From sequence record PQ036202: a stretch of DNA of 64,000 nucleotides. One strand, written 5' to 3'. The DNA is from Escherichia phage GEP101. The first letter of the stretch is position 1; every line of letters begins with the position of its first letter. The translations under genes were made by a program, and so were the position numbers. The notes under the pieces were generated by a model that saw nothing but the letters and a program-made list of their open reading frames with translations, was not told the origin of the DNA and did no database searches. Of this stretch, positions 30,795 to 61,863 are shown piece after piece.

Positions 30795-31328
30795 TCAAGA
30801 TAGTTTTGCAAACTCTCCGTGGAGTTTAATAGCAGCTTCACAGTAAGCTTTATGGGCTTCTTCTGGTGTGTCATGATAACCTAAAAACATCTTCTTACCT
30901 TTATAACTTATCTGTGCGACCCACTTACCAGACTTCTTCTTAAGACTTACACCCTTGTACCCAGATTTATTGGTGACTGGTTTACCTTTATTCCAAGCAC
31001 TTTGAAAGTCATCTGCTTCCCTTAAGTTTACAATCCTGTTGTCAAGTGAGTCTCCGTTGATATGGTCAATGATACCTTTTGGCATCTTGCCATACACGTA
31101 AAGCCATGCGAGTCTGTGTGCTTTATGTGCTTTCTTGTCAAAATAGATACTAACCTGTTTATGACCACTTGAATCAGTCTGGATATTACCTGCCACCTTT
31201 CCTGCATAATTACTGTTAAAAACACTAACAGCTCTTGATTTACCTTCTCTACGAAGCCAAGTAAAGACCCCTGTTTCGGGGTCATAGTGCAGCAGCTCCT
31301 TTAAACGTTTTTGTAAAATTAAATCCAT
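30795..31328 (-). CDS. HNH homing endonuclease with AP2-like DNA-binding domain
   Basis: IDHINGDSLDNRIVNLREA HNH motif; YKGVS...KWVAQISYKGKKMFLGYHDTPEEA AP2-like; start 3 nt after DNA polymerase stop. Confidence 0.75.
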   Translation of the reverse strand: MDLILQKRLKELLHYDPETGVFTWLRREGKSRAVSVFNSNYAGKVAGNIQTDSSGHKQVSIYFDKKAHKAHRLAWLYVYGKMPKGIIDHINGDSLDNRIVNLREADDFQSAWNKGKPVTNKSGYKGVSLKKKSGKWVAQISYKGKKMFLGYHDTPEEAHKAYCEAAIKLHGEFAKLS

Positions 31329-31331
31329 TAA

Positions 31332-31888
31332 TCAATGTACCTCATACCAGCTCTTACCAACCTTTGCTGTACCAGTTACAAGTGTTTCTTTCCTCAAACC
31401 TAAGTTTTTTGAAGCTTGTCCATACATCCAGTCAGCAATTGCTTTCATATCATGTGTCATACCCTCTGGACATTCCCAACTATTTTCATCGTGATATGCC
31501 AGAAGTAACCTTGCTCCGATAGCTGGTTTTCGAGCATTCAGTTTTGTCAGGCCATCTTCACAGGCTTTTCTTGCTGCTAGGTTGATGGCCTCATTCTGAA
31601 TCTGTGCTTCCGAACTCATCAGGAGGTAGTTCAGTAGTTTATGTGGAGATTTGCACCATATCCATGCTCCAGCGACCCTGATATAACCACCTTTAGCAAT
31701 TGAAGAGTTCTTCCCAAAAACCTCTTCCAGAGCCTTTTTAGACACCTTAAAATCAGCTTCTAAGCTATCAAGTAACTTCTTAATCTTTGGCAAACGCATA
31801 TAGTAAGTTTGTTTAGTCAATGCACCTTCTTCCGTAGATGATGCCTTGATAGTTTTTGCAAACTTCTCATCGCCAGCCCCGAACAATA
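31332..31888 (-). CDS. DNA polymerase family A, exon 2 (C-terminal, motif B second half and motif C)
   Basis: LFGAGDEKFAK aligns with T7 pol FLYGAGDEK; HDE motif C; no ATG at exon start (ORF track begins at TTG). Confidence 0.75.
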
Positions 31889-32156
31889 CATCTGGTCAAT
31901 ACACTCGCAAGGTGTACCAGTTCTCTTATGAACTTCTCCGCATTTCTACGGAGTGTCGGACTATATCACGTAGCAGTGATGCTACCGTTGCACTTGGGGA
32001 TGGCCATTAGCTTACCACCCTACTCTACTCAGTTCATACATTAAGTATGCTTTTCGATAGTCTCTGAACGTTCCTCTTAAGAGGCTTCGCTGCTGATTAC
32101 CATATCTTTCCAGACTTAGGCTTCCAGCAATTCACAACGTTTTACATGCGCCACTG
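31889..32156 (-). ncRNA. group I self-splicing intron (ORF-less) in DNA polymerase gene
   Basis: Minus-strand P/Q/R/S elements AATTGCTGGAA, AATCAGCAGC, GTTCAGAGACTATCG, GTGATATAGTCCG; IGS GCGCAT pairs exon end ATGCGT with U-G at splice site; terminal G. Confidence 0.8.
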
Positions 32157-34299
32157 ACGCATAAATGCCATTTTTGGCTTTCTTACGACCTTTTGTAATC
32201 TCGTGAAGAAGCTCCTCATCCTGCGTCTCCCTACAACGAACAATATCATCTTCCTTGTTTAGACCAAAGTAAATACTATTCAGTGTATGTGCATCAGTAC
32301 CTGTGTAGACTTCGTAGAGGTCATTCTCAGCATCATAACGAAGATACTTATCAGTTTCTGGATTGAGGTACTTATCGAGATGCTTGCAATAGTATCTTCC
32401 ATCCTCTTGCTTGGTAAATTCTACTGACTCTTTACCTTCAGTTACCGCTTTGGTGAAGTCTTTATCACCCATAAAGTTACACAGTAAAACAAGCTGTGCA
32501 GAGTTCTGGTCAACTGAAACGATATTAGTCCCTTCCTCGCAAATCCACACCTCCCTCATAGGTGCTCCATAGACAGCAGCACCAGACGGTACGTTTACAA
32601 TACCATATTGTGTCATACGTCCAGTTGAAGTACCAAATACCATTGCACCGGCACTAAGGCGACCATCAGGGCGAATCTGGTTCAACCAACCTTTTTCATC
32701 ATCCTTTGAGTTCTCAATAGTTCTACGTCGGTGCATCAAAGTGTAGTATTTCGCAATCTTCTGTCCAAGCTCACCTTCAATCGTATCATAAGATGATTCA
32801 GTAAGTTTTGGTGAAGTACGGATTAAGCAAGGCTCAAGCAAATCTGTGTACTTCTTCACAGACCAGTTATGCTCAATGTACTGGACACCTTCATGTTCAA
32901 CATAACTCAAACCACACCGTTCCACCATCTCATCCCACTTAGGATGCTTTGTAATCATCTTTTTGTTGTCTTTGAAACGACAAACTTTGACAGGACGACC
33001 GTCAGAGTCTTTCTTGTAGTTCCAGTCATCTGGAATCCAACCAACTGATTTCAAGTAGTCTTTAACAACTGCTACCTGAGTCATACGAGAAACTTCGAAC
33101 TCAATTGGTGTATATGGTGCATCAATCAAACCTGTGTAGCGACTTGACTCAAGCTCAAAGTGGTTAACGACATGGCTGTTATAGTACTTCACAGTTTTAA
33201 CTGTTTTTACTGGCTTCCAGTCTTTGCACTTCTTACCAATCTTTGCATTCAACTCATTGCAAATTGCACGAGCATCCTTCATTGCTACAAAACCTTCCTT
33301 GTACTCTTCACCAGTTACAGAGTTGGTTGGTGTATAGCAATTCCGCTTTTCAATGTTAAAAATCTTTGTAGTTGGCTTACCAAATGGCTTGATTTCATAT
33401 GTCTGCATCTCACCGTTACGTACCTGTTGACGATACTTTGTCTTAGGGTACTTGGTAATTCTTTTCAGTCCATCTGCATGACCAAATGCTTCAACATACT
33501 CATTCCAAGCTTTTGCAAACTCTTCTCCAGTGACTTTACCTTTGGTCTTAATAGTTGGAGGAAGATGTGGTTCAACTTCTGAAGCAAGCTCATTAGTCAA
33601 CTTGTCAAGTTCCTTTACATGAAACTCCATAAGCTCTTTATCAGCTTTCCAACCATTGATAGCCTGTTGACTCATCCAGAAAGATGTTTCTTTAGCTCGC
33701 ATGTAAGTCTCATAAGTGTCTATACCACACTTCTTAAGCTTGAGATACTCGTTATCAAGTGCCCGTTTAGTTTTGGCGTTGATACGGATATCTTCCACAA
33801 CACGAGTGAAGATTTCTGCATTCCACACACCCCAATGTTCAATCTCTGGTTTACGGACACCAACACGAGCACCCCATGCTGCCAAGCCATGAGCACCTTT
33901 ATAGCCCTTTGGAGTTGGTCTATCCATCCACTGAACACGAGACTGGATAAGAGAATCCTGAAAGAAATTACTCCACGGCTTACACTTTGGATTATCAAAG
34001 TTCCACAAATCAGGTGCAATGTGGTTGAAAACCCACCAGTCATAACCGAGACCGTTATGGATGCAAAGACGTTTTGCCTTTAACGCAAACTCAACACCTT
34101 CACGCAAACCACCCTTAATGTACTTGGTGTACTTGTGACCGAGGATAGGCTCATCTGTAAAGACCCATACAGGTGGCTCTTCATCGTCAGATTTATAGTC
34201 TGCGAAAGCCATGACGTGTACTTTAGTGAACTCAAGGAGTAAACCATCAGTTTCTGTATCACCAACTAAGTGTAAGTTTTTAAAATCTACGTTTTCCAT
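32157..34299 (-). CDS. DNA polymerase family A, exon 1 (3-5 exonuclease and polymerase motif A, first half of motif B)
   Basis: GDTETDGL exo motif (cf. Pol I DTETDSL), DQNSAQLVLL motif A-like, RKKAKNGIYA start of motif B; start at ATG 34299 with GAGGGA RBS. Confidence 0.8.
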
Positions 34300-34554
34300 T
34301 TCTACTCCCTCTAAATCATTAACCACATACATTACTGCAAAAAATTATAAAAAGCAAGTTGACAATGTACTTGACAAGGTGTTAATCTTTGCGAAGTGGG
34401 TTTTTACTTAAAAGGTTACTTAACAGTTTAACTATACAGATACTTTAAAACTCTTAAAAGATTATTTAATAGCTTTTAAAAGTTTTAAAGTATAACGTAT
34501 AGAATACGTTAAGATAAAAGATTAAAACTTAATAGTTACTTAAAAGAGGCTTAC

Positions 34555-40165: not shown

Positions 40166-41206
40166 ATGGAGAAGTATACGCTAACAAAACTTCCCGATTC
40201 AGTTACACATGTCTTTATTGACTCTGACAGTATTGCCTATAAAGGTGCTTGTGTAGTTGAGAAAGCAAAATATAAATACGTCAATAAACTCACAGCAGAA
40301 GAATCTGAACCATTTGATAATGCAAAAGATGCCGCAAGATGGTTAGCAGACCAGAGAATCCTTGTAGAAGAGCTTGGCCTAGCATTTGATGAAGATGAAT
40401 GGGAAAGACAGACTTGGAAAGAAGCTAAGAGTGAAAAAGAAGCTATCATGGCTACTCAGCAAGTTCTTCAGGAATGGCTTAAGGTTGTTGGTAAAGAAAG
40501 AACTTGGGTAGGTTACTTAACAGAGAAGGGTGTACATAAACATAAAGACGTTAAAGGTCTTGAGCACCAATATCAAGGTAACCGTAAAGATGCTGTCACA
40601 CCAACACACTTAGTTGCTTGTCGTGAATATCTTCTGTCAAGACCAGAGTTTAAATTGATTCTTGATGGATTTGAAGCTGACTCTATCGTTATCGCTAAAG
40701 CTGAAAAGATGGGTAAAAAGGCTGCCTTAATGAGTATTGATAAAGACCTTCGCCAAGCTGAAGGTACTTACTGCATTGATATGACCTATGAAAAATCACC
40801 TTTAATTTTCATTGCTGATAACAACGTTGGTGAAATTTGGGATTGTCCAATAAAATCGACACCAAAAGCTAAGAAGACAGTTGGAGTAGGTTTTAAATTT
40901 CTTTGCTATCAAGCTGTGGCTGGTGATAATGCGGATAACTACTTCGGTTTAAAAGGTGTTGGTAAAGCTGCTGTGATGAAGGCTCTTGAAGGGAAAACAA
41001 CTTACAAAGAGTGTCTTGATGCAATTTACGAGCTATATGCTAAGAAAGACTCCTACACTTATGTATCATGGGATGGTCAGACAATCACCAGAACACCCCT
41101 AGAGTTAATGCAGCAACACTTTTTCTTAGCTTATCAGGAAAGAAATAAGAAAGACGATTTCTCTTTTAAGAAATATAATTGGGAGCCGTGTATGAATGAA
41201 GATTAA
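40166..41206 (+). CDS. 5-prime to 3-prime exonuclease / flap endonuclease (RNase H-like)
   Basis: N-terminal VFIDSDSIAYKG and downstream MSIDKDLRQ resemble FEN/Pol I 5-prime nuclease motifs. Confidence 0.55.
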   Translation: MEKYTLTKLPDSVTHVFIDSDSIAYKGACVVEKAKYKYVNKLTAEESEPFDNAKDAARWLADQRILVEELGLAFDEDEWERQTWKEAKSEKEAIMATQQVLQEWLKVVGKERTWVGYLTEKGVHKHKDVKGLEHQYQGNRKDAVTPTHLVACREYLLSRPEFKLILDGFEADSIVIAKAEKMGKKAALMSIDKDLRQAEGTYCIDMTYEKSPLIFIADNNVGEIWDCPIKSTPKAKKTVGVGFKFLCYQAVAGDNADNYFGLKGVGKAAVMKALEGKTTYKECLDAIYELYAKKDSYTYVSWDGQTITRTPLELMQQHFFLAYQERNKKDDFSFKKYNWEPCMNED

Positions 41207-41693
41207 AGGGTTTGGTAATTGTCCCACCTATGGTCATTGGGTATCTTTATGTGGGGAAGTTGACCCCACTAAACATTTTGGTTTTGTCTATTTAGTACAC
41301 TGTAAGAAAACCGGACAATATTACATAGGAAAGAAACAGTTTAACAGTGTTACCAAAAGAAAAGTTGCTGGTAAGACTCGGAAGAAGGTAGTCACTAAGG
41401 AAAGTGATTGGATGACTTATGAGACTTCTTCTGAGTATGTTAAAAAAGATATTGAGAGCTTTGGAAAAGAATTTTTTGACTTTTACATTATCCAAACCTA
41501 CTACACGAAAGGTGGTCTAGTTTATGGTGAAGCAAACCTCCAACATAAATTCGATGTAATGACAAAAAGGATTGACTCTAAGCTCAGACTCTTCTACAAT
41601 GCCAACATTGCAGCAATTAAGTTTATCACTAAAGAAACTTATGAAGATGCTGAAAAAAGAATCCATAAGGTAATGAAAGCAAACTGTGCTTGA
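41196..41693 (+). CDS. GIY-YIG family endonuclease (putative free-standing homing endonuclease)
   Basis: FGFVYLVHCKKTGQYYIGKK matches GIY...YIG motif spacing. Confidence 0.5.
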   Translation: MKIKGFGNCPTYGHWVSLCGEVDPTKHFGFVYLVHCKKTGQYYIGKKQFNSVTKRKVAGKTRKKVVTKESDWMTYETSSEYVKKDIESFGKEFFDFYIIQTYYTKGGLVYGEANLQHKFDVMTKRIDSKLRLFYNANIAAIKFITKETYEDAEKRIHKVMKANCA

Positions 41694-47482: not shown

Positions 47483-49627
47483 ATGAACAAAGTACAAATT
47501 ATTAAAAAGAATGGCTCACTTGAAGAACCGGATATCAAAAAAGTTTTAGCAGCAGTAACTAAGTCAGCTAACAGGGTTGGATATAAAGAACTTCCACCAG
47601 ATGTTACCCAAGCTCTTGAGTCAGCATTTATGAGGATTCTGGTAAAGTCCACTAAGCAGAATAACTTACTTATCTCAGTAAATGATATTCACAGCATTGT
47701 TGAGGGTGCTTTGGCAGAAGTCAATCACGAGATTTATGAATCTTATTCAACATACAGAAATTACCGTAAAGAAGTCGCTCAAAATTGGGATGAGCTTTAC
47801 CAAAAGACCAGAGACACACTCTTCTTAGGTGACCGTGAAAATGCTAACTTTGACAGTAGTTTAATTTCTACAAAAGGTTCAATCATTCGTGGTTACTTGA
47901 CTAAAGAAATCTTTAAACAGTACCATTTAACACCAGAGGAACTTGAAGCCATTGAAAAAGGGTTTATCTATATCCACGATTTAAGAGACCTGATTTTTGG
48001 TGGTATCAACTGTTGCCTGTTTGACATTGGTAAAGTACTGAAAGGTGGCTTTGAAATGTCTGGCATTGAATACTGTGAACCGAAGTCTGTACTGTCAGCC
48101 TTACAAGTTATCGGTGATGTAGTTCTTTCAGCAACTGCACAGCAATTTGGTGGATTTACTTTAGCAGAGATTGATAAGGTGCTTGTACCGTATGCTAAGA
48201 AGTCTCTACGCTATCATGCTGAGAAAGCAGCATCTTACGGTATTCCTAAAGAACATTACCATAACTATGTCATGGAGCAGCTACAGATTGAATTAACTCA
48301 AGGCTTCCAGTCACTAGAGATGAAACTAAATACTGTACCTTGTAGCCGTGGTGATTTTGCATTCACAACTTTAACATTTGGTTTACTTGACTCAGACATG
48401 TCTAATGAAGACAACCGGCTACAATACATGATTGCAAACACCATTCTTGATGTTCGCATGAATGGACAAGGTAAGAGTAAGAAGCCTGTTGTATTCCCTA
48501 AACTGGTTTATATTCATGACCAGAAGAGACACGATGAGAATATCTGTCAAGGCCAACTGTACAGTAAAGCTATTGAGTGTTGCTCTAAAGCAATGTATCC
48601 AGATTTCTTAAGCGTATCTGGTCATGGTGCTGTAGCAGAGGCTTTTGAGCGTTCTGGCAAGGTAATTTCACCGATGGGTTGCAGAGCTTTCTTATCCCCA
48701 TATCTTAACGAGAATGGAGAAGAGTTCTACGTTGGTCGTGCTAATATTGGTGCTGTATCTTTGAACTTGCCAATGATTTACCAGTATTCTAAAGAGAGTG
48801 GTTTAGATTTCTGGAAAGAGCTTGATAAGTACCTAGAGATGATTCGCAGCTTCCACAAGAAACGCTACGAAATGATTGCTAATATGCCAGCAAGTTCTAA
48901 CCCTCTTGCATTCACACAAGGTGGTCTGTACAAAGGGACTAAGAAACCTACTGACAAGGTTGGCTGGGATATTGTGAAGTCTTTCACAGCTTCTTTTGGG
49001 GTTACTGCGCTTGATGAGTTATCTGTTCTTGCTGAGGGTAAACGACTTCATGAAGTTGGAAGCTGTAGTTTTGCATACGATGTTCTAGCATACATTAACA
49101 TGAAAACTGAAGAGTTTAAGGATGAAGATGGCTTCTTGTATGCAGTCTATGGCACTCCAGCAGAATCACTTTGTGGGACTCAGCTAAAACAGTTCAGAGA
49201 AATGTTTGGTGTTATCAAAGGCGTTTCTGACAAGGAATACTTTACAAACAGTTTCCATATGAATGTTGCAGCAGACATCTCACCATTTGAGAAGCAGGAC
49301 TTAGAAGAGCCATTCTTCCATATCTGTAGAGGTGGCAGAATCCAGTATGTAAGGGTAGCTAACCCAGAAAACTTAACAGCACTTAAAAGTTGTATTACAA
49401 GAGGCATGTTGAAAGGCTTTTATCAGGGACTTAACTTTGACTTAGCAATCTGTGAACATTGTGGTAACAGACCAAAGGCTGATGTTGAAGAATGTGAAGT
49501 TTGCCATTCACATGATATCTCTGTGATTAACAGGGTGTGCGGGTACTTGGGGTGGACTAAGATTAAAGGCGAATCCCGAATGAATGATGCAAAAATTGCT
49601 GAGATTCGTGACAGGATTTCTATGTAA
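47483..49627 (+). CDS. nrdD: anaerobic ribonucleoside-triphosphate reductase
   Basis: N-terminal ATP-cone, C-terminal Zn-ribbon CEHCG...CEVCH and glycyl radical motif RVCGYLG. Confidence 0.85.
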   Translation: MNKVQIIKKNGSLEEPDIKKVLAAVTKSANRVGYKELPPDVTQALESAFMRILVKSTKQNNLLISVNDIHSIVEGALAEVNHEIYESYSTYRNYRKEVAQNWDELYQKTRDTLFLGDRENANFDSSLISTKGSIIRGYLTKEIFKQYHLTPEELEAIEKGFIYIHDLRDLIFGGINCCLFDIGKVLKGGFEMSGIEYCEPKSVLSALQVIGDVVLSATAQQFGGFTLAEIDKVLVPYAKKSLRYHAEKAASYGIPKEHYHNYVMEQLQIELTQGFQSLEMKLNTVPCSRGDFAFTTLTFGLLDSDMSNEDNRLQYMIANTILDVRMNGQGKSKKPVVFPKLVYIHDQKRHDENICQGQLYSKAIECCSKAMYPDFLSVSGHGAVAEAFERSGKVISPMGCRAFLSPYLNENGEEFYVGRANIGAVSLNLPMIYQYSKESGLDFWKELDKYLEMIRSFHKKRYEMIANMPASSNPLAFTQGGLYKGTKKPTDKVGWDIVKSFTASFGVTALDELSVLAEGKRLHEVGSCSFAYDVLAYINMKTEEFKDEDGFLYAVYGTPAESLCGTQLKQFREMFGVIKGVSDKEYFTNSFHMNVAADISPFEKQDLEEPFFHICRGGRIQYVRVANPENLTALKSCITRGMLKGFYQGLNFDLAICEHCGNRPKADVEECEVCHSHDISVINRVCGYLGWTKIKGESRMNDAKIAEIRDRISM

Positions 49628-51792: not shown

Positions 51793-51822
51793 AAGGGGAC
51801 TGTAAAGGTTCCCTTTTTATTT
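51793..51822 (+). terminator. rho-independent terminator
   Basis: AAGGGGACT-GTAAA-GGTTCCCTT hairpin followed by TTTATTTT. Confidence 0.4.
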
Positions 51823-51832
51823 TGGAGATAAT

Positions 51833-51949
51833 ATGTATCTGTCAAATCTGAAACGTTCTGCTGCAATGTCTGTCCTAAGACTGAGCTTTGAAGAACGTCA
51901 AGAGTTCATTGATTCCCACCAATACGACCCTTCTAACTCGAATTACTGA
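51833..51949 (+). CDS. very small hypothetical ORF (38 aa)
   Basis: ATG 51833 with GGAGA RBS. Confidence 0.25.
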   Translation: MYLSNLKRSAAMSVLRLSFEERQEFIDSHQYDPSNSNY

Positions 51950-51970
51950 TTAGAAAGATTCAAAATGATA

Positions 51971-52000
51971 TTGACGGACTCGTCAAAGATTGGCTATAGT
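51971..52000 (+). promoter_or_regulatory. candidate promoter TTGACG-N18-TATAGT with embedded palindrome TTGACGgactCGTCAA
   Basis: Direct read upstream of methyltransferase gene. Confidence 0.35.
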
Positions 52001-52033
52001 TAGCTCATTGGAACGAAACACAACGGAGTAAAA

Positions 52034-52755
52034 ATGATGGATATTAAAACAGAGAATGCGTGGTTAATGTTTGGTGACTGTCTGGAGCGCATGAAAGAAA
52101 TACCGGACGGTAGCGTGGATATGATTTTGTGTGATTTGCCGTATGGTACGACGCGGAATAAATGGGATTTAGTAATACCTTTCGATAAACTTTGGGCAGA
52201 GTATAAGCGGGTGTGTAGCGGCGCCGTGGTTCTCACTGCCGCGCAGCCCTTCACCTCCGCCCTTATAATGAGTAACCAAAAGGATTTCAAGTATACGTGG
52301 GTGTGGGATAAGGCTACAGCACCGGTTTTCTTAATGCTAAAAAGCAGCCCCTTCGCCAGACAGAAGATATTGTCGTTTTCGGTAAGGTTAAGACTTACAA
52401 TCCAATAATGGAAGTTAGGGGAAAGCCACGCAAGAAAGGAGGGCATAATAAGCCAGGAGGCTCTGATAACTACGGCCGGTTCGGTGACGCAGTTTCTGTC
52501 AATAACGAATATTACCCTACCAATCTGTTGCGCATATCCAACGCGGTGCGCAAGGGTAGGCTGCACCCTACACAGAAGCCAGTGGCCTTGATGGAATACC
52601 TTATCAAGACGTACACCAACGAAGGGGATGTGGTTCTTGATAACTGCATGGGCAGCGGTACAACTGGTGTGGCATGTCGCAACACAAACCGTAAATTCAT
52701 CGGTATTGAAATGGACCCGACTTATTACGGCATTGCGTGTGGGAGAATTTTATGA
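52034..52755 (+). pseudogene. beta-class N6A/N4C DNA methyltransferase, interrupted by a frameshift near 52312..52330
   Basis: Frame A (52034..52408) has DLPYG motif IV-like and VWDK; frame B (open from 52312 to 52755) has HPTQKP and VLDNCMGSGTTGVAC SAM-binding motif I. Confidence 0.65.
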
Positions 52756-52928
52756 CACCAACACTCCTCGAATGGCAACGTAAGCACGGTATCACGGCTG
52801 AGGCTCTGGCTGACCTTGTGACAAAACCAGTACCAGATGGCATAGGTAAATGTTCAGTGATTTATCACGTTGTAGACCCTGCAAAATGCAAATCTGCAAT
52901 GGCAGTAACAAACGTAACTTTTGATTGA
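52737..52928 (+). CDS. hypothetical protein
   Basis: 63-aa ORF overlapping methyltransferase 3-prime end. Confidence 0.3.
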   Translation: MWENFMTPTLLEWQRKHGITAEALADLVTKPVPDGIGKCSVIYHVVDPAKCKSAMAVTNVTFD

Positions 52929-52942
52929 GAGAGAGAGAAACT

Positions 52943-53824
52943 ATGAAAACATCTATCCGTGTTACAGTTCATTCACCAACTAAAGGGACTCATGAAGAAG
53001 AGTTTAACATCATCCAATTCCCTTCTGGTGAGATTGGTGGACACTTTTCACCAGAGTTTGTTGATTTTACTACCTATGCAGCATCATCTATCAACAATGT
53101 GATTATGATTGTAAAAGGCTATGATAAAGATATATTGTTTGCTGTGGCACTTGCTAAAGAGGCAGTGGACAACTTAGTACCTCATAAGTTTGCTATGAAG
53201 ACTGTTATCTTTTACTATTTACCAAATGCACGTTATGACCGTCACATGTTTAAAGGTGATGCAGCAGCTTTGAAAGTGTTTGCACAACAGGTTAATGCAA
53301 TGGGTTTTGATGCAGTCTGTGCAGTTGACCCTCACAGTTATGTGCCAGATAACCTGTTTAACTGCTTCCAGAGCATTCCTCAAAAGGAAATTGCAGTCCA
53401 CTATGCAAATGACCCACTGGTTGATTACTTAGTAGCCCCAGATGCAGGTGCTTCTAAGAAGATTGCAGAAACTGCTAAAGAAGTGGATAAACCATACATC
53501 ACAATGTCTAAAGTACGTAACCTTAAGACTGGTGAAATTACTGGTATGCGAATCCTTGATGATGTTGATTTGACCGATAAAACTGTTATGATTCTCGATG
53601 ATATCTGTGATGGTGGTCGAACCTTCATAGAAGCAGCTAAACATCTTCGTGAAGCAGGTGCAAAACGTGTGGAACTCTATGTAACTCATGGTATCTTCTC
53701 TAAAGGTGTTGAAAACTTACTTGACAATGGTATTGACCATATCTACACTACAAACTCTTTAGGGGAAGCTAAAGACCGTGGCTTAACACATTATGCCCAA
53801 GTTACTGTAGCAAACCTTGATTAA
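52943..53824 (+). CDS. ribose-phosphate pyrophosphokinase-like enzyme (Prs family; candidate NARP1 Adps)
   Basis: PRPP-binding-like motif VMILDDICDGGRTF; ATG 52943; immediately upstream of NAMPT homologue. Confidence 0.75.
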   Translation: MKTSIRVTVHSPTKGTHEEEFNIIQFPSGEIGGHFSPEFVDFTTYAASSINNVIMIVKGYDKDILFAVALAKEAVDNLVPHKFAMKTVIFYYLPNARYDRHMFKGDAAALKVFAQQVNAMGFDAVCAVDPHSYVPDNLFNCFQSIPQKEIAVHYANDPLVDYLVAPDAGASKKIAETAKEVDKPYITMSKVRNLKTGEITGMRILDDVDLTDKTVMILDDICDGGRTFIEAAKHLREAGAKRVELYVTHGIFSKGVENLLDNGIDHIYTTNSLGEAKDRGLTHYAQVTVANLD

Positions 53825-53831
53825 AACTTTA

Positions 53832-53854
53832 TAGGGGCTTTTAAGCCCCATTTT
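53832..53854 (+). terminator. hairpin with short T-run
   Basis: TAGGGGC-TTTTAA-GCCCCA followed by TTTT. Confidence 0.35.
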
Positions 53855-53869
53855 GAGAGAGATTAAAAG

Positions 53870-55651
53870 ATGACTAAATCACTTTATGCAGTGCCAGCAG
53901 GTTTAAACGCAGATGCTTACAAGGCATCACATATATATCAGTATCCAGATGCCACACAGTACCTTATGCTGAACCTGACACCACGTAGTGATAAATGGTT
54001 TAACAGTCCTTTAGCCATTGACGGTGTAGTTGCTTTTGGTATTCAACGTTTTGTTAAAGATTATTTAATAGACCACTGGAATGCCACCTTCTTTGAACGT
54101 GACAAAAAAGAAGCAATTGACGAAATCTTAGAAGTCATGAACGGTGTTCTGGGTAAAGATGCTATTGGTCGAGAACACTGGGAAGCACTACATGACTTAG
54201 GTTATCTACCAGTTGAAGTGTACGCTGTAGAAGAAGGCACAGTTGTACCTATGCGTGTACCAATGATTGTCTTCCAGAACACTGTTTCAGGTTTCCATTG
54301 GGTAGCTGGGTATCTGGAAGATGCTTTCTCTGCTGAGATTTGGAAGGCTTGTACCATTGCAACTATTGCATTGCACTACAAACGTATCTGTAAGAAGTGG
54401 TCTGACCTTACTTGTGACAATGACTTGCATTTGCCTTATCAGTGCCATGACTTTGCTATGCGTGGTATGTCTGGCTTTACTGATGACGCATTTAACGCTG
54501 TAGGCCACTTAACCAGCTTTAAAGGAACTGATAGCTTCCCTGCTGTATATACAGCTAAACGAATCTATGGACAGTCCTACCCAATCTCTGATATTGGCAG
54601 CTCTGTACCAGCCACTGAACACTCTGTAATGTGTGCAAACATTGCTTGGGAAGGTGGTAATGAGTTGATTGAAGAAGAAAGACGCTTTAAAGGTGAGTTA
54701 CAAACCTTCCGTCGTTTCTTAACAGAAACTTACCCAACTGGTATTGCAAGTGTTGTTTCAGACACTTATAATTTCTGGAGAACTGTATCAGAAATCTTAC
54801 CAGCACTTCGTAAAGAGATTATGGAACGTGATGGTAAACTGGTAATTCGTCCTGACTCTGGAGACCCTGTACATATTGTCACAGGTTATAAAGCAATCCA
54901 CTTAGAGTGTGCTAAAAAGGCTTATTACGAACACCTAAGCAAGCTGGAAGCCAGCGACACAAAGTTGAATGCTGTTCTGAACATGAATCTTGAAGACATT
55001 CACTATATTATGGCTGGGTGGTTACGTACAGAAGGCTATGAAATGGTGGTTGACAGAGAAGACTTTGAAGTAGCTGATACAGTGCTTCTGAAAGATGCCT
55101 ACATCAATGGCTCTGCAAACGTTGTAACACGTCCTGTAGCAGAGATTGATGGGGCTATTAAGACCCTGTATAACATCTTTGGAGGGACTATCAACTCTAA
55201 AGGCTTTAAGGTACTGGATGAGCACATTGGCCTTATCTATGGTGACTCTATCACGTTGGAACGTGCAAACGAAATCCTGAAGCGTTTGTATGAAATGGGT
55301 TTTGCAAGCTCTAACGTAGTGTTTGGTGTAGGTTCTTACACTTACCAGTACATGACTCGTGACACCTTTGCATTTGCTGTCAAAGCAACTCTTGCAAGCA
55401 TTGGTGGTAAAGAGATTATGCTTGCAAAAGACCCTAAAACAGATAGCGGTGTTAAGAAGTCTGCTTTTGGTGGTGTAGCACCTATGTGGGATGGTGATAA
55501 GCTGAAAGCTGTAGATGGCTATGGATTCCAGAGCTTTGCAGATGTGCTTGAACATCCAGCTTGTGCTTTACGTTTAATCTTTAGTGACTCTGAGCAGTTC
55601 GGTTACACAACTCTTGGTGATATTCGAAATAATATTGACAAGCAGCTTTAA
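53870..55651 (+). CDS. nicotinamide phosphoribosyltransferase family protein (candidate NARP1 Namat)
   Basis: DFAMRGMSG, SVPATEHSV, VVSDTYN, IRPDSGDP motifs characteristic of the NAMPT family. Confidence 0.85.
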   Translation: MTKSLYAVPAGLNADAYKASHIYQYPDATQYLMLNLTPRSDKWFNSPLAIDGVVAFGIQRFVKDYLIDHWNATFFERDKKEAIDEILEVMNGVLGKDAIGREHWEALHDLGYLPVEVYAVEEGTVVPMRVPMIVFQNTVSGFHWVAGYLEDAFSAEIWKACTIATIALHYKRICKKWSDLTCDNDLHLPYQCHDFAMRGMSGFTDDAFNAVGHLTSFKGTDSFPAVYTAKRIYGQSYPISDIGSSVPATEHSVMCANIAWEGGNELIEEERRFKGELQTFRRFLTETYPTGIASVVSDTYNFWRTVSEILPALRKEIMERDGKLVIRPDSGDPVHIVTGYKAIHLECAKKAYYEHLSKLEASDTKLNAVLNMNLEDIHYIMAGWLRTEGYEMVVDREDFEVADTVLLKDAYINGSANVVTRPVAEIDGAIKTLYNIFGGTINSKGFKVLDEHIGLIYGDSITLERANEILKRLYEMGFASSNVVFGVGSYTYQYMTRDTFAFAVKATLASIGGKEIMLAKDPKTDSGVKKSAFGGVAPMWDGDKLKAVDGYGFQSFADVLEHPACALRLIFSDSEQFGYTTLGDIRNNIDKQL

Positions 55652-55662
55652 AAGTATATGAT
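55635..55662 (+). promoter_or_regulatory. candidate promoter TTGACA-N16-TATGAT
   Basis: Direct read at 3-prime end of NAMPT gene, upstream of 55705 ORF. Confidence 0.35.
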
Positions 55663-55690
55663 AAGAGGCTCCTACGGGAGCCTTTTTAAT
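55663..55690 (+). terminator. rho-independent terminator
   Basis: AAGAGGCTCC-TACG-GGAGCCTTTT hairpin followed by T-run. Confidence 0.5.
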
Positions 55691-55704
55691 TTCTGGAGAG
55701 GATT

Positions 55705-56040
55705 ATGAAAATCAAAGAGATGAATATCAATATTGTCTTAGAAGAACGTTGGGAGAACATCAAGAAGCCTGAAAATGGTCATAAGTTCCTCAACAAAATC
55801 TTAGTAGCAGCTAAAGAAGAACTGACTGGCAAGGTTGCAGCAGCAATCACAATAAAGGTGTGTGTAAAGGGTCTTCCAGACAATCACCAATTTGCACTTG
55901 ACGAGTTTAAAGAAAGCTTCTACAATCCAAACAAACAGATGTTTGAAAGTAACTTTGCAGTATCTACAAGTATCGTCCATGACAGAAGCTTTATCCTTTA
56001 CAAGAATATGAGAGGTGAGTCATGCAAGCATATTGGATAG
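55705..56040 (+). CDS. hypothetical protein
   Basis: 111-aa ORF. Confidence 0.35.
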   Translation: MKIKEMNINIVLEERWENIKKPENGHKFLNKILVAAKEELTGKVAAAITIKVCVKGLPDNHQFALDEFKESFYNPNKQMFESNFAVSTSIVHDRSFILYKNMRGESCKHIG

Positions 56041-56198
56041 AAATTTTACTGTCACTTGGTAGTGTAGCAGTCTTTGTTTACCTTCTTTGCAAGTACTACG
56101 CAGAGCACAAAAAATGTGACTTCTGTAATGGAGAGGGCTATACAAGAGCAGGTTGCTGCCCTATGTGTGGTGGTTCTGGTAAAATGTTTAATAAGTAA
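56022..56198 (+). CDS. small membrane-anchored zinc-finger protein (58 aa), not in ORF track
   Basis: ATG 56022 with GAGGTGA RBS; hydrophobic N-terminus then CDFCNGEGY...CCPMCGGSG (DnaJ-type CxxCxGxG). Confidence 0.35.
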   Translation: MQAYWIEILLSLGSVAVFVYLLCKYYAEHKKCDFCNGEGYTRAGCCPMCGGSGKMFNK

Positions 56199-59792: not shown

Positions 59793-59816
59793 AGGCTACT
59801 TCGGTAGCCTTTTTTG
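59793..59816 (+). terminator. rho-independent terminator (UUCG loop)
   Basis: AGGCTAC-TTCG-GTAGCCT followed by TTTTT. Confidence 0.55.
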
Positions 59817-59830
59817 ATATGGGAGGATGA

Positions 59831-60730
59831 ATGGCTAAAGCAGAACTTGATAAATACTACACACCAGATGAAGTAATAAGAGTGTGTGAATATAAGCTAC
59901 AAAAGGTCTTTAAAGGCTCTATTTCGTGCATTATAGACCCCTGTGCAGGTGACGGAAGATGGAAAGATTCTTTTAAGAGGGTTTGTCAAGATGTTGTGCT
60001 ATACGACATCGAACCAGACTCTGAGGATGTTAGTACAAGAGACTTCCTGAAAGATGACTTAGAGATTCCAGATAAACCTTTTGCGATTGTTACCAACCCT
60101 CCATTTGGTAAGGCAAATAGTCTGTCTACAAAGTTCTTTAACAAGGCTGCTACAATGAATCCAGACTACATTTGCTTCTTAGTTCCTATTAACTTTGGGA
60201 AGAAGAATCTTAGCAGACTTAGCAGAGAGTACACCTGCATTGACGAAGTAGAACTACCTAACCTTCATTTTGAAAGGATTGATGGAGTTACCTACTCAGC
60301 AAAAGAGTCGTCACTACGCTGTAACTTCCAAATCTGGAAGAGACAAAAGCGGACAGATGAAACTTGTAAGATTGTTCCTGTGATAGTTGATGGTGTAAGA
60401 GTCTATAAGCGTGAGAAATTCACACTATACAGGCCACCATGTCACAAGATTGATGGTAAAGAACAGCCAGTAGGTGTTTTAGGCAAACTGGATGGAAAAG
60501 ATTTGTTCACGATTATTACACATGGTCGTAAGGCTGGTACTGTGAAGGTCTTTGAACCAGATAAAGATAAGGTGTCTGTGAAACAATTTATCGAGCCTCA
60601 CATAGAAGGGCTTTACTCAGCAATCAAACAGGATTGGTTCGAAGATTTAAGAGATGGTTTTGCGCTGAGTTATGCAGGTTCGATAAATTCACAGGAAATC
60701 ATAGAAACCATAGAAAAACATTTGCATTAA
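59831..60730 (+). CDS. gamma-class N6-adenine DNA methyltransferase
   Basis: YYTPDEV, DPCAGDG (motif I) and NPPF (motif IV) in gamma order. Confidence 0.65.
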   Translation: MAKAELDKYYTPDEVIRVCEYKLQKVFKGSISCIIDPCAGDGRWKDSFKRVCQDVVLYDIEPDSEDVSTRDFLKDDLEIPDKPFAIVTNPPFGKANSLSTKFFNKAATMNPDYICFLVPINFGKKNLSRLSREYTCIDEVELPNLHFERIDGVTYSAKESSLRCNFQIWKRQKRTDETCKIVPVIVDGVRVYKREKFTLYRPPCHKIDGKEQPVGVLGKLDGKDLFTIITHGRKAGTVKVFEPDKDKVSVKQFIEPHIEGLYSAIKQDWFEDLRDGFALSYAGSINSQEIIETIEKHLH

Positions 60731-60785
60731 TAAAAGAATGTGTGTAGTATACCTGTAAACAAACCAAGTAGATGAGAGAGTAATC

Positions 60786-61625
60786 ATGAAATTCAAAGAG
60801 TTCCAGAGCAAAACACCTTGTAAGATTGATTTCGTTTGTGGTGTAGCCTCATTCTTCATGGGGTACATGGACTGGGCTAACTGTGCAAAACCTTACTCAG
60901 CAAACCGTAGCATCGAGCGACGTATTACAAAACCATATCTTAATGAAGACCTTCGTGAGGTGGATTTACGTTCCCGTGTTACGGGTGTACTGTTCAATGG
61001 AGAAGTTATCAACATTGATTCTCATGCTCGTGTAGAGAACTGGAAGAATGGTAAATTAGGTGCTCCCAAGAACGGCCTTGTCTATGTGACCCTGTTTGCT
61101 GTTAATTCACAGGAAGAAGTAGATTTCCTCTACGACCAAGAAAACTCACTGGACTCACGAGCTACGAATGGTGACCAAATTACAACTGCAATACTACGCT
61201 CTGGTTATAAGCCACAGACAGCGTTCACCAAGAAATTTACTGGTGCTGGTGTGTGGGCCTTATTAGGTCTCCGTGGATGCCTTGATGAAGCATTTGTACT
61301 CTATCAAGAAGAGCTTAAACTTATTGATGCACTTGGCATTGATAAGGATGAGATGGATAAGTACAAAGAGAAGACTGTAAATGGTGTTAAGCAGAAGTGT
61401 GAACTGCGTAAAAAGTACTCTGCTCCAATTATGGCAGCAATGCTTAAGAGCTTCAAAGAAAACCCTGAAAAGGCTACAAAGTTCTGGTTGGACTACCGTG
61501 ATGATGATGAGTCTGTAAGCAGCTTCTTAGATGCCATGAAGACCCAGTATGACCAGAATGGTGGTGTGTTTCAAGGTTATGTAATGTCACAAGCTGACGT
61601 TGCATTTAGAGCTTATAAGGACTGA
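60786..61625 (+). CDS. hypothetical protein
   Basis: 279-aa ORF. Confidence 0.35.
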   Translation: MKFKEFQSKTPCKIDFVCGVASFFMGYMDWANCAKPYSANRSIERRITKPYLNEDLREVDLRSRVTGVLFNGEVINIDSHARVENWKNGKLGAPKNGLVYVTLFAVNSQEEVDFLYDQENSLDSRATNGDQITTAILRSGYKPQTAFTKKFTGAGVWALLGLRGCLDEAFVLYQEELKLIDALGIDKDEMDKYKEKTVNGVKQKCELRKKYSAPIMAAMLKSFKENPEKATKFWLDYRDDDESVSSFLDAMKTQYDQNGGVFQGYVMSQADVAFRAYKD

Positions 61626-61860
61626 TATGCAAGTTAAAAAGATGATGGTAAGAGTTGCTCTCAAGTATCTGGGGGCAGCTACACAATACGAAGTAGCAGA
61701 GTACCTCTCTGCAAAGTTTGGTAAAAAATATCTCCCATCGGATTTTACACAGACTTTTATAGACTTAGAGAAGACGAAGACTATCACTAAGTTACCTGTT
61801 AAGCGTCGTAACTTTCGTAATGGGAAACCTACAGGTTTTGGGAACCTCTACGTAATGTAA
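61600..61860 (+). CDS. hypothetical protein
   Basis: 86-aa ORF. Confidence 0.3.
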   Translation: MHLELIRTDMQVKKMMVRVALKYLGAATQYEVAEYLSAKFGKKYLPSDFTQTFIDLEKTKTITKLPVKRRNFRNGKPTGFGNLYVM

Positions 61861-61863
61861 CTA

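Follow-up and report, generated by a model that had tools for sequence, protein, structure and literature searches.

Results and Discussion

Organization of the Locus

The window that we have analyzed is a 64-kb stretch of a genome of roughly 86-88 kb, and its source phage is Felix O1-like (Felixounavirus), with 94-97% nucleotide identity to many records. Two adjacent genes on the plus strand, 45 nt apart, are the subject of this work. The first, adps (52943..53824), encodes a 293-residue protein of the Prs family, annotated here as an ADP-ribose pyrophosphate synthetase on the basis of orthology to Bas63_0079 and Pfam matches, and the second, namat (53870..55651), encodes a 593-residue Nampt-family protein that we annotate as a nicotinamide ADP-ribose transferase from its orthology to Bas63_0080 and a structure match. 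An adjacent, co-oriented Prs-like and Nampt-like gene pair had been predicted from the letters of the DNA, and both ORFs are present as described, with every quoted motif found. The start of adps was placed at ATG 52943, which is preceded by the purine tract GAGAGAGA and fits both the Bas63 annotation and the 293-aa length; TTG 52925, the start of a longer automated ORF call, was set aside in its favor. Approximately 250 near-identical loci occur in the phage database. The flanking genes gp76, gp82, gp83, rIIA and rIIB are kept between the window and Bas63, and Bas63 gene 81, downstream of the operon, is absent from the window. Neighboring ORFs at 52737-52928, 55705-56040 and 56022-56198 match only PHROGs of unknown function and have no significant Pfam match.

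Three putative regulatory elements, all on the plus strand, can be recognized around the pair. A hairpin read directly from the sequence, GGGGCT-TTTA-AGCCCC followed by ATTTT (53834..53849), lies between the adps stop codon and the namat ribosome binding site and might act in attenuation or in RNA stability; the terminator scan made no call for it. Starting 12 nt past the namat stop codon is a terminator-like hairpin that matches the consensus (55663..55686), with a 10-bp stem containing 5 G-C pairs and a T-rich tail. Upstream of both genes, a sigma-70-like promoter match, TTGACG-18-TATAGT (51971..52000), agrees with the consensus at 10/12 positions, in a scan that returned 19 sites versus 11 expected by chance; it is preceded by a further terminator-like hairpin at 51793-51815 and may start a unit comprising the methyltransferase gene, orf63, adps and namat.

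The Prs-like Protein

Adps aligns with Bas63_0079 over its full length and without gaps (293/293 aa, 80% identity), and Bas63 Adps counts among the seeds of the Adps clade as published (Osterman et al.). The 5' third of the gene is mosaic, with the first ∼100 codons 65% identical to Bas63 and synonymous divergence saturated. Identity to the Adps proteins of the Bacillus phages SPbetaL1 and FADO is 27-28%; for the biochemically characterized SPbetaL1 protein it is 28%, hardly above the 25% shared with E. coli Prs, which speaks somewhat against an Adps assignment. The Pfam families matched are Pribosyltran (1.8e-11) and Pribosyl_synth (2.5e-9). Prs-type ATP- and ribose-binding motifs are readily located as NARYDRH, DPHS and LDDICDGGRT, so that RxDR, DPHS and the DD-loop are conserved; the PRPP-binding-like motif that had been singled out earlier, ILDDICDGGRTF, is found at residue 217, and K190, within SKVRN, aligns with the catalytic K162 of SPbetaL1 Adps.

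Profile comparison had been proposed as a means of separating Adps from housekeeping Prs, and this succeeds in part. Adps scores 45-105 bits against the NCBIfam equivalog models of housekeeping Prs, for which the cutoffs are 296-536, and thus misses all of them by about 3-fold or more (the best, NF002095, at 105 bits versus a cutoff of 296); the sole Prs model passed is the broad subfamily model TIGR01251 (123 versus 113 bits). The part that did not hold concerns phrog_619, matched at 2e-98, which gives 330 bits for the window protein versus 193 for E. coli Prs and does not split the two cleanly. We have therefore relied on Bas63 orthology and the NCBIfam cutoffs, which place the Prs-like protein, as far as sequence comparison can tell, in the phage Adps clade and not with housekeeping Prs.

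The Nampt-like Protein and Its Adenine Clamp

Namat is closer still to its Bas63 counterpart, 96% identical to Bas63_0080, likewise a published clade seed, over 593/593 aa, again ungapped. It matches NAPRTase (5.5e-35) and NAMPT_N (9e-6) in Pfam, and the families matched by the two proteins are those given for the Bas63 operon by Osterman et al. The Nampt motifs quoted in the original prediction are located at residues 194 (DFAMRGMSG), 245 (SVPATEHSV), 295 (VVSDTYN) and 326 (IRPDSGDP), and the catalytic core residues F195, R198, D221, H251, R327 and D329 are invariant in our alignments. In SPbetaL1 numbering, the equivalents of F189, R192, D215, A242, R306 and D308 are conserved, as are those of G360-D361, G390-S391, Y396 and T398-R399-D400, and the only substitutions among the residues compared are the conservative A362 to S and F392 to Y. 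Adps and Namat match consecutive halves of phrog_12872, an apparent fused Prs-Nampt family, which supports a functional link between them.

A search of the PDB with Namat finds the Namat structures 9w5w and 9w5x at E=2.5e-128. An AlphaFold2 model of the protein (pLDDT 93.1) has as its top fold match the Namat crystal structure 9w5x, with a TM-score of 0.95 normalized to the target, and Namat crystal structures rank above both HdNadV (9ke8) and mammalian NAMPT. E. coli prs (b1207), HdNadV and human NAMPT do share superfamilies, folds and core catalytic residues with the window pair, and it is the adenine clamp that is specific to Namat. One element of this clamp, the SCH signature GSXΦXΦXΦTRD, in which the aromatic X residues stack on adenine and which is reported to be absent from Nampt (NAR paper), is present as GSYTYQYMTRD at residues 488-498; all three X positions are Tyr, with Thr, Gln and Met at Φ1, Φ2 and Φ3, respectively. 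Met at Φ3 is found in both the window protein and Bas63, in place of the usual Asn or Val. The other element, the SCL, reads S40-D41-K42-W43, with K42 and W43 at the third and fourth positions as the clamp pair. This conforms to the published rule, for which Bas63 is cited, that the third residue is Arg, Lys or Tyr and that a stacking fourth residue is present if the third is Lys or Tyr (NAR paper).

Relation to Known NAD+ Reconstitution Pathways

The closest known system is NAD+ reconstitution pathway 1 (NARP1) of Bas63 (JohannRWettstein, MZ501086), a phage of the same genus with the operon between gp76 and gp82/gp83/rIIA, proteins of 293 and 593 aa, and an identical clamp in both SCL (SDKW) and SCH. 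Bas63 operon 79-80 is where NARP1 was genetically discovered (Osterman et al.), a result independently confirmed by PhageMaP. Recognition of NARP1 calls for co-oriented Adps and Namat genes at most 10 genes apart, and those of the window are direct neighbors. NARP1 of SPbetaL1 (Namat structures 9w5w/9w5x) and FADO has the same gene order, Prs-like then Nampt-like, and shares the catalytic residues and SCH; the window Namat is 46-48% identical to these proteins, and SCL stacking involves the Lys-Trp pair here as opposed to Arg (R40) in SPbetaL1. The proposal that the pair has a NARP1 architecture is thus borne out by orthology to Bas63 79-80 over the full length of both genes, by synteny, and by the Namat-specific signature and clamp, and we consider it highly probable that these genes are the two-gene NARP1 of a Felix O1-like phage.

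Both the chemistry and the anti-defense phenotype would then follow what has been reported for the orthologues. Cleavage of NAD+ by a host NAD+-depleting defense (SIR2-HerA/Nezha, DSR, type I Thoeris, SEFIR and others) would release ADP-ribose and nicotinamide; Adps would use ATP to pyrophosphorylate ADP-ribose at the ribose C1'', giving ADPR-PP, and Namat would exchange the pyrophosphate of ADPR-PP for nicotinamide, producing NAD+ directly and without the host enzymes that convert NMN to NAD+. Bas63 lacking 79-80 is sensitive to SIR2-HerA, with NAD+ recovery and ADPR-PP abolished, and in PhageMaP the deletion of either g79 or g80 decreases plating on Sir2-HerA cells by 1e4-1e6, an effect restored by complementation. 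In vitro chemistry has been established with the SPbetaL1 enzymes only; Bas63 Adps did not purify, and for Bas63 ADPR-PP was detected in vivo.

An improbable alternative is that the genes encode a true PRPP synthetase and a true Nampt/NadV that boost classical salvage by making NMN from ribose-5-phosphate, ATP and nicotinamide, with NAD+ completed by host NadR or PncC/NadD. Homologues in Felix O1-like phages are annotated in this way in databases, Pfam and NCBIfam assign the two proteins only to generic Prs and Nampt families, Namat passes the 'nicotinate phosphoribosyltransferase' equivalog NF006629 (468 bits versus a cutoff of 405), and Namat also forms NMN from PRPP in vitro. Against this, Bas63 79-80 requires neither pncC nor nadR of the host for its effect, Bas63 overcoming SIR2-HerA even in the double mutant; ADPR-PP is seen only when the Bas63 operon is present; SPbetaL1 Adps gives no Prs-type product; and the protein pair described here combines the Namat-specific adenine clamp with a Prs-like partner that falls below every housekeeping Prs equivalog cutoff.

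More elaborate pathways must also be weighed. NARP2 of Vibrio phage KVP40, consisting of the NadV/Nampt enzyme and the bifunctional Nmnat-Nudix protein NatV, likewise uses a Nampt-family enzyme to restore NAD+ against depletion defenses, but starts from PRPP, needs Nmnat and operates without Adps. NARP1-AP (Adps-Adpp-Namat, Vibrio phage Gary) and the RyDEP-extended NARP1 of mycobacteriophage DyoEdafos share the Adps and Namat core and differ by a Macro-domain phosphatase and a RyR-domain glycosidase, respectively, neither of which is found in or beside the window operon. The original prediction had noted that no NMNAT or Nudix partner lies nearby, and a Pfam scan of the neighbors and of ORFs of at least 100 aa between 24.4 and 63.2 kb agrees, with no match to CTP_transf_like, NUDIX, Macro or RyR; genes for such partners are likewise missing from the Bas63 annotation between 40 and 87 kb. 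NARP2 is recognized by Nmnat, often fused to Nudix, in the absence of Adps, whereas the scanned ORFs include Adps and the Nampt homologue has the Namat adenine clamp; the NARP1-AP and RyDEP forms are recognized by Adpp or a RyR glycosidase no more than two genes away from the operon, where we find neither. The lack of such partners among the scanned ORFs identifies the locus as plain two-gene NARP1 as opposed to NARP2 or an extended variant. That a partner is encoded elsewhere in the genome is very unlikely. Variants of this kind are known in other phages, the window leaves ∼22-24 kb of the genome uncovered, and the scan took in part of the small ORFs. However, in addition to the empty searches, Osterman et al. 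found no phage that carries both NARP1 and NARP2, and Adpp and RyDEP are intra-operonic where present, while here there is just the 45-nt spacer.

The Upstream Cassette

A GC-rich methyltransferase island had been noted upstream of the pair and is indeed there (GC 0.47 versus 0.39 for the window; N6_N4_Mtase 1.7e-24); compared with Salmonella phage S19cd, in which the gene is intact, a 1-nt deletion disrupts the reading frame. This frameshifted cassette replaces Bas63 gp77 (a GIY-YIG protein) and the 5' part of gp78. In Bas63, gp77, upstream of 79-80, counters the Ec67 retron, and the downstream rIIA/rIIB counter QatABCD, so that the suggestion of an anti-defense neighborhood fits the Bas63 literature; the gp77 slot here contains the disrupted methyltransferase. 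A GIY-YIG ORF elsewhere in the window (41196-41693, SegE-like) was considered as a displaced gp77 and rejected, the two being dissimilar (E = 0.045 across 14 aa).

Both adps and namat are under purifying selection (dN/dS relative to Bas63 of 0.15 for adps; 0.07 for namat), and the idea that they are a decaying, non-functional copy in a degenerating accessory region, to which the frameshift next door and the 61-66% identity of adps nucleotides 52944-53243 to Bas63 might point, is scarcely credible given these ratios, two intact ORFs of Bas63 length, retention of all invariant family columns, and the presence of the same allele, 96-97% identical, in several phages of independent isolation, DE7 and S19cd among them, which argues for a functional alternative allele and against decay.

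An Inserted Domain in Namat

The window Namat contains two insertions, both also present in Bas63 and both missing from the SPbetaL1 and FADO proteins. The smaller comprises ∼19 residues at about 257-275. The larger, at residues ∼340-427 (∼88 aa; 54887..55150, plus strand), is also absent from human and bacterial Nampt, is seen only in Ounavirinae-type phages, and is under purifying selection. An independent fold is predicted for it with high confidence, and a search for structural homologues detected none; the Namat structural paper does not discuss this domain. We raise, as a possibility that we would not favor, that the domain might add a property that the SPbetaL1 enzyme lacks and, separately and with the same reserve, that the slot upstream of adps might be a site for exchangeable counter-defense cassettes. 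Candidates for such a property might include regulation, the channeling of substrate that Adps supplies, or binding to a factor of the host or of a defense system.

Concluding Remarks

The NARP1 reading of this gene pair is correct but has already been published for this genus, and since NARP1 was discovered there and the window genes are orthologous, no new biology is added. There is value at the level of annotation, as most GenBank records still carry the names 'ribose-phosphate pyrophosphokinase' and 'nicotinamide phosphoribosyltransferase'. We predict that the phage should resist NAD+ depletion of the SIR2-HerA, DSR, Thoeris-I and SEFIR types. With no Adpp it should not withstand aRES-type cleavage to ADPR-1''-phosphate, and with no RyR-domain glycosidase it should not recycle cADPR signals. 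The inserted Namat domain, the cassette exchange and the mosaic 5' end of adps provide modest leads for NARP1 enzymology and for the evolution of phage accessory regions.

Gene Pair and Relation to the Bas63 Operon

Both members of the co-oriented gene pair that the original prediction placed at 52943-55651 are located exactly as reported, on the + strand and separated by a spacer of 45 nt in the ORF listing of the window: adps (52943-53824, 293 aa, Prs-like) and namat (53870-55651, 593 aa, Nampt-like). Every one of the peptide motifs quoted in that prediction was found in the window proteins. A mechanical ORF call starts adps further out, with a TTG at 52925; we have taken the ATG at 52943 as the start because it is preceded by the purine tract GAGAGAGA and because the resulting length equals that of the annotated gene in Bas63 (Escherichia phage JohannRWettstein, MZ501086). 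The Pfam families, Pribosyltran and Pribosyl_synth for Adps and NAPRTase and NAMPT_N for Namat, are identical to those listed by Osterman et al. for the operon where NARP1 (NAD+ reconstitution pathway 1) was found.

A total of ∼250 Felix O1-like phages, with E. coli, Salmonella, Shigella and Citrobacter as hosts, share 94-97% nucleotide identity with the region, and the flanking gene set is that of a typical Felixounavirus early/middle region, including NrdA, NrdB, NrdD, NrdG, thymidylate synthase, DHFR, DNA ligase, primase-helicase, dNMP kinase, rIIA, rIIB and a split DNA polymerase A with an HNH-AP2 endonuclease. Bas63 is itself a Felixounavirus of the BASEL collection, and NARP1 was discovered by deletion of its genes 79-80. 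Phage without these genes are sensitive to SIR2-HerA, NAD+ recovery is blocked and the new metabolite ADPR-PP, which Adps makes from ADP-ribose and ATP, is gone, an effect independent of host pncC and nadR. In an independent genome-wide knockout study of Bas63, single deletion of g79 or g80 led to a 1e4-1e6 plating drop on Sir2-HerA cells, with plating regained by complementation. The window proteins align with those of Bas63 end-to-end and ungapped, with 233/293 residues identical (80%) for Adps and 568/593 (96%) for Namat; synteny is kept on either side of the operon (gp76, gp82, gp83, rIIA, rIIB) and dN/dS values against Bas63 of 0.15 (adps) and 0.07 (namat) indicate purifying selection on both genes.

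Several differences from Bas63 and other accessory features were also observed. Downstream of namat, Bas63 has a 345-nt gene 81 that is missing from the window (site 55652-55704), and NrdD (47483-49627) is uninterrupted here, whereas in Bas63 it is a joined CDS in which a homing endonuclease is embedded. DNA polymerase A (region 30795-34332, - strand) is split into ORFs 31332-31886 and 32116-34332, with the HNH-AP2 homing-endonuclease ORF (30795-31328, - strand) directly next to the split; a GIY-YIG endonuclease resembling SegE is encoded at 41196-41693 (+ strand). A second accessory island (59815-61863), between rIIB and a gp86 homologue, is not found in Bas63 and is shared with 9 of ∼250 related phages; within it lie an N6-adenine methyltransferase-like ORF (59831-60730, 299 aa) and an ORF without family match (60786-61625, 279 aa).

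Namat Signature and Insertions

According to a 2026 structural paper, Namat is set apart from Nampt by an adenine 'selectivity clamp'. The SCH motif of the clamp, GSXΦXΦXΦTRD, reads GSYTYQYMTRD in the window protein (aa 488-498). The third position of the SCL loop is R, K or Y, and with K or Y there the fourth residue stacks on adenine; the window loop, S40-D41-K42-W43, is identical to that of Bas63, which the paper cites as an example of a third-position K with fourth-residue stacking. Equivalents of the Namat catalytic core (F195, R198, D221, H251, R327, D329) are invariant across the alignments made here. An AlphaFold2 model (pLDDT 93.1) best matches the Namat crystal structures 9w5x/9w5w of Bacillus phage SPbetaL1, with a TM-score of 0.95 on the target, followed by Haemophilus NadV and mammalian NAMPT.

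Relative to Bacillus-phage Namat, the Ounavirinae protein carries two specific insertions, at aa ∼257-275 (54638-54694, + strand) and aa ∼340-427 (54887-55150, + strand). The larger, restricted to 253 Ounavirinae-type records in the phage database, is predicted to form a self-contained alpha/beta mini-domain (pLDDT 92-96 in context, 92.7 when modelled alone). Its dN/dS of 0.21 reflects quicker evolution than in the remaining protein, yet still constraint. No structural homologue was found in the PDB or BFVD and the structural paper does not mention it; the insertion is compatible with NARP1 function since Bas63 Namat has the same one.

A Namat-type motif, GSFTYQYNTRD, also occurs in four 496-aa enterobacterial 'nicotinate phosphoribosyltransferases' from Klebsiella, Cronobacter and Kosakonia chromosomes (P0068, P0071, P0086, P0104), which are 45-48% identical to the window Namat. 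Like those reported for Paenibacillus, these proteins may be NARP1-like enzymes of bacteria.

Adps and Its Separation from Prs

Adps retains the Prs-type RxDR, DPHS and DD-loop motifs, and its K190 aligns with K162 of SPbetaL1 Adps, an enzyme inactivated by the K162A mutation. Against the NCBIfam equivalog models of housekeeping Prs it scores 45-105 bits, with cutoffs of 296-536 bits, and the sole Prs model passed is the broad subfamily TIGR01251 (123 vs a cutoff of 113 bits). The phrog_619 profile gives no clean separation of Adps from Prs, and identity is 28% to SPbetaL1 Adps vs 25% to E. coli Prs.

Over the first ∼300 nt of adps (52944-53243) nucleotide identity to Bas63 is 61-66%, with dS saturated and 65% amino acid identity, and the remainder of the operon is 85-99% identical, a pattern marking a mosaic or recombination boundary within the part of adps that encodes the N-terminal domain. 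The diverged 5' allele is also present in phages DE7 and S19cd. Adps and Namat match positions 55-224 and 236-534, respectively, of the 547-position profile phrog_12872, an arrangement implying that some phages encode the two as a fusion protein.

Putative Operon Signals and the Upstream Cassette

Terminator-like hairpins at 51793-51815 and 55663-55686 enclose the methyltransferase, a 63-aa ORF, adps and namat, and a sigma-70-like site lies at 51971-52000; all three are consensus matches only, from which we infer a hairpin-bracketed four-part unit. Within the adps-namat spacer a hairpin, GGGGCT-TTTA-AGCCCC followed by ATTTT (53834-53849), may act as an attenuator or RNA-stability element.

The GC-rich methyltransferase island proposed upstream is borne out in composition (GC 0.47 vs 0.39 for the window) and family (N6_N4_Mtase, E = 1.7e-24), with the qualification that the gene is split and the cassette rare. 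The latter (51951-52823) is found in only ∼4 of ∼250 related Felixounavirus phages and stands in place of Bas63 52067-52629, the body of gene 77 and the 5' part of gene 78; across the replacement region (51833-52925) the first 38 codons alone of gp77 survive (51833-51946), along with the last 34 of gp78. Over its 3' 200 nt the cassette shares 87-90% identity with methyltransferases from Klebsiella and Acinetobacter phages of 48 kb. The beta-class N6/N4 DNA methyltransferase (52034-52755, + strand), with DLPYG near its N-terminus and DNCMGSGTTG near its C-terminus, has an intact counterpart in Salmonella phage S19cd, a 240-aa 'modification methylase'. Compared with that gene, the window copy lacks 1 nt near 52316 (GGCT-AC vs GGCTAAC), which breaks it into two ORFs (52034-52408, 52408-52755); it would be either a pseudogene or the product of a sequencing error. 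An anti-defence neighbourhood, as originally suggested, is reasonable because in Bas63 the GIY-YIG protein gp77 reportedly acts against the Ec67 retron, and rIIA/rIIB, which closely follow the operon, counter QatABCD.

Pathway Variant

As predicted, no NMNAT (CTP_transf_like) or Nudix partner lies nearby: neither domain, nor Macro or RyR, occurs in the immediate neighbours or in ORFs of at least 100 aa between 24.4 and 63.2 kb, the window itself being 64 kb of an ∼86-88 kb genome. Absence among the scanned ORFs of RyR rules out a RyDEP-extended NARP1, of Macro NARP1-AP with its Macro phosphatase Adpp, and of NMNAT/Nudix the KVP40-type NARP2; the system is therefore plain two-gene NARP1. In vitro NARP1 chemistry was established on the SPbetaL1 enzymes, used because Bas63 Adps failed to purify, and given the low Adps identity to these, support for the Felixounavirus type comes from genetics and metabolomics rather than from enzymology. 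The NARP1 interpretation is supported by the full-length match to Bas63 79-80, synteny, the Namat clamp motifs and the fold. The pathway itself has been described before in the genus to which this phage belongs. From what is known of the Adpp-bearing NARP1-AP, aRES-type NAD+ cleavage should not be overcome by GEP101.
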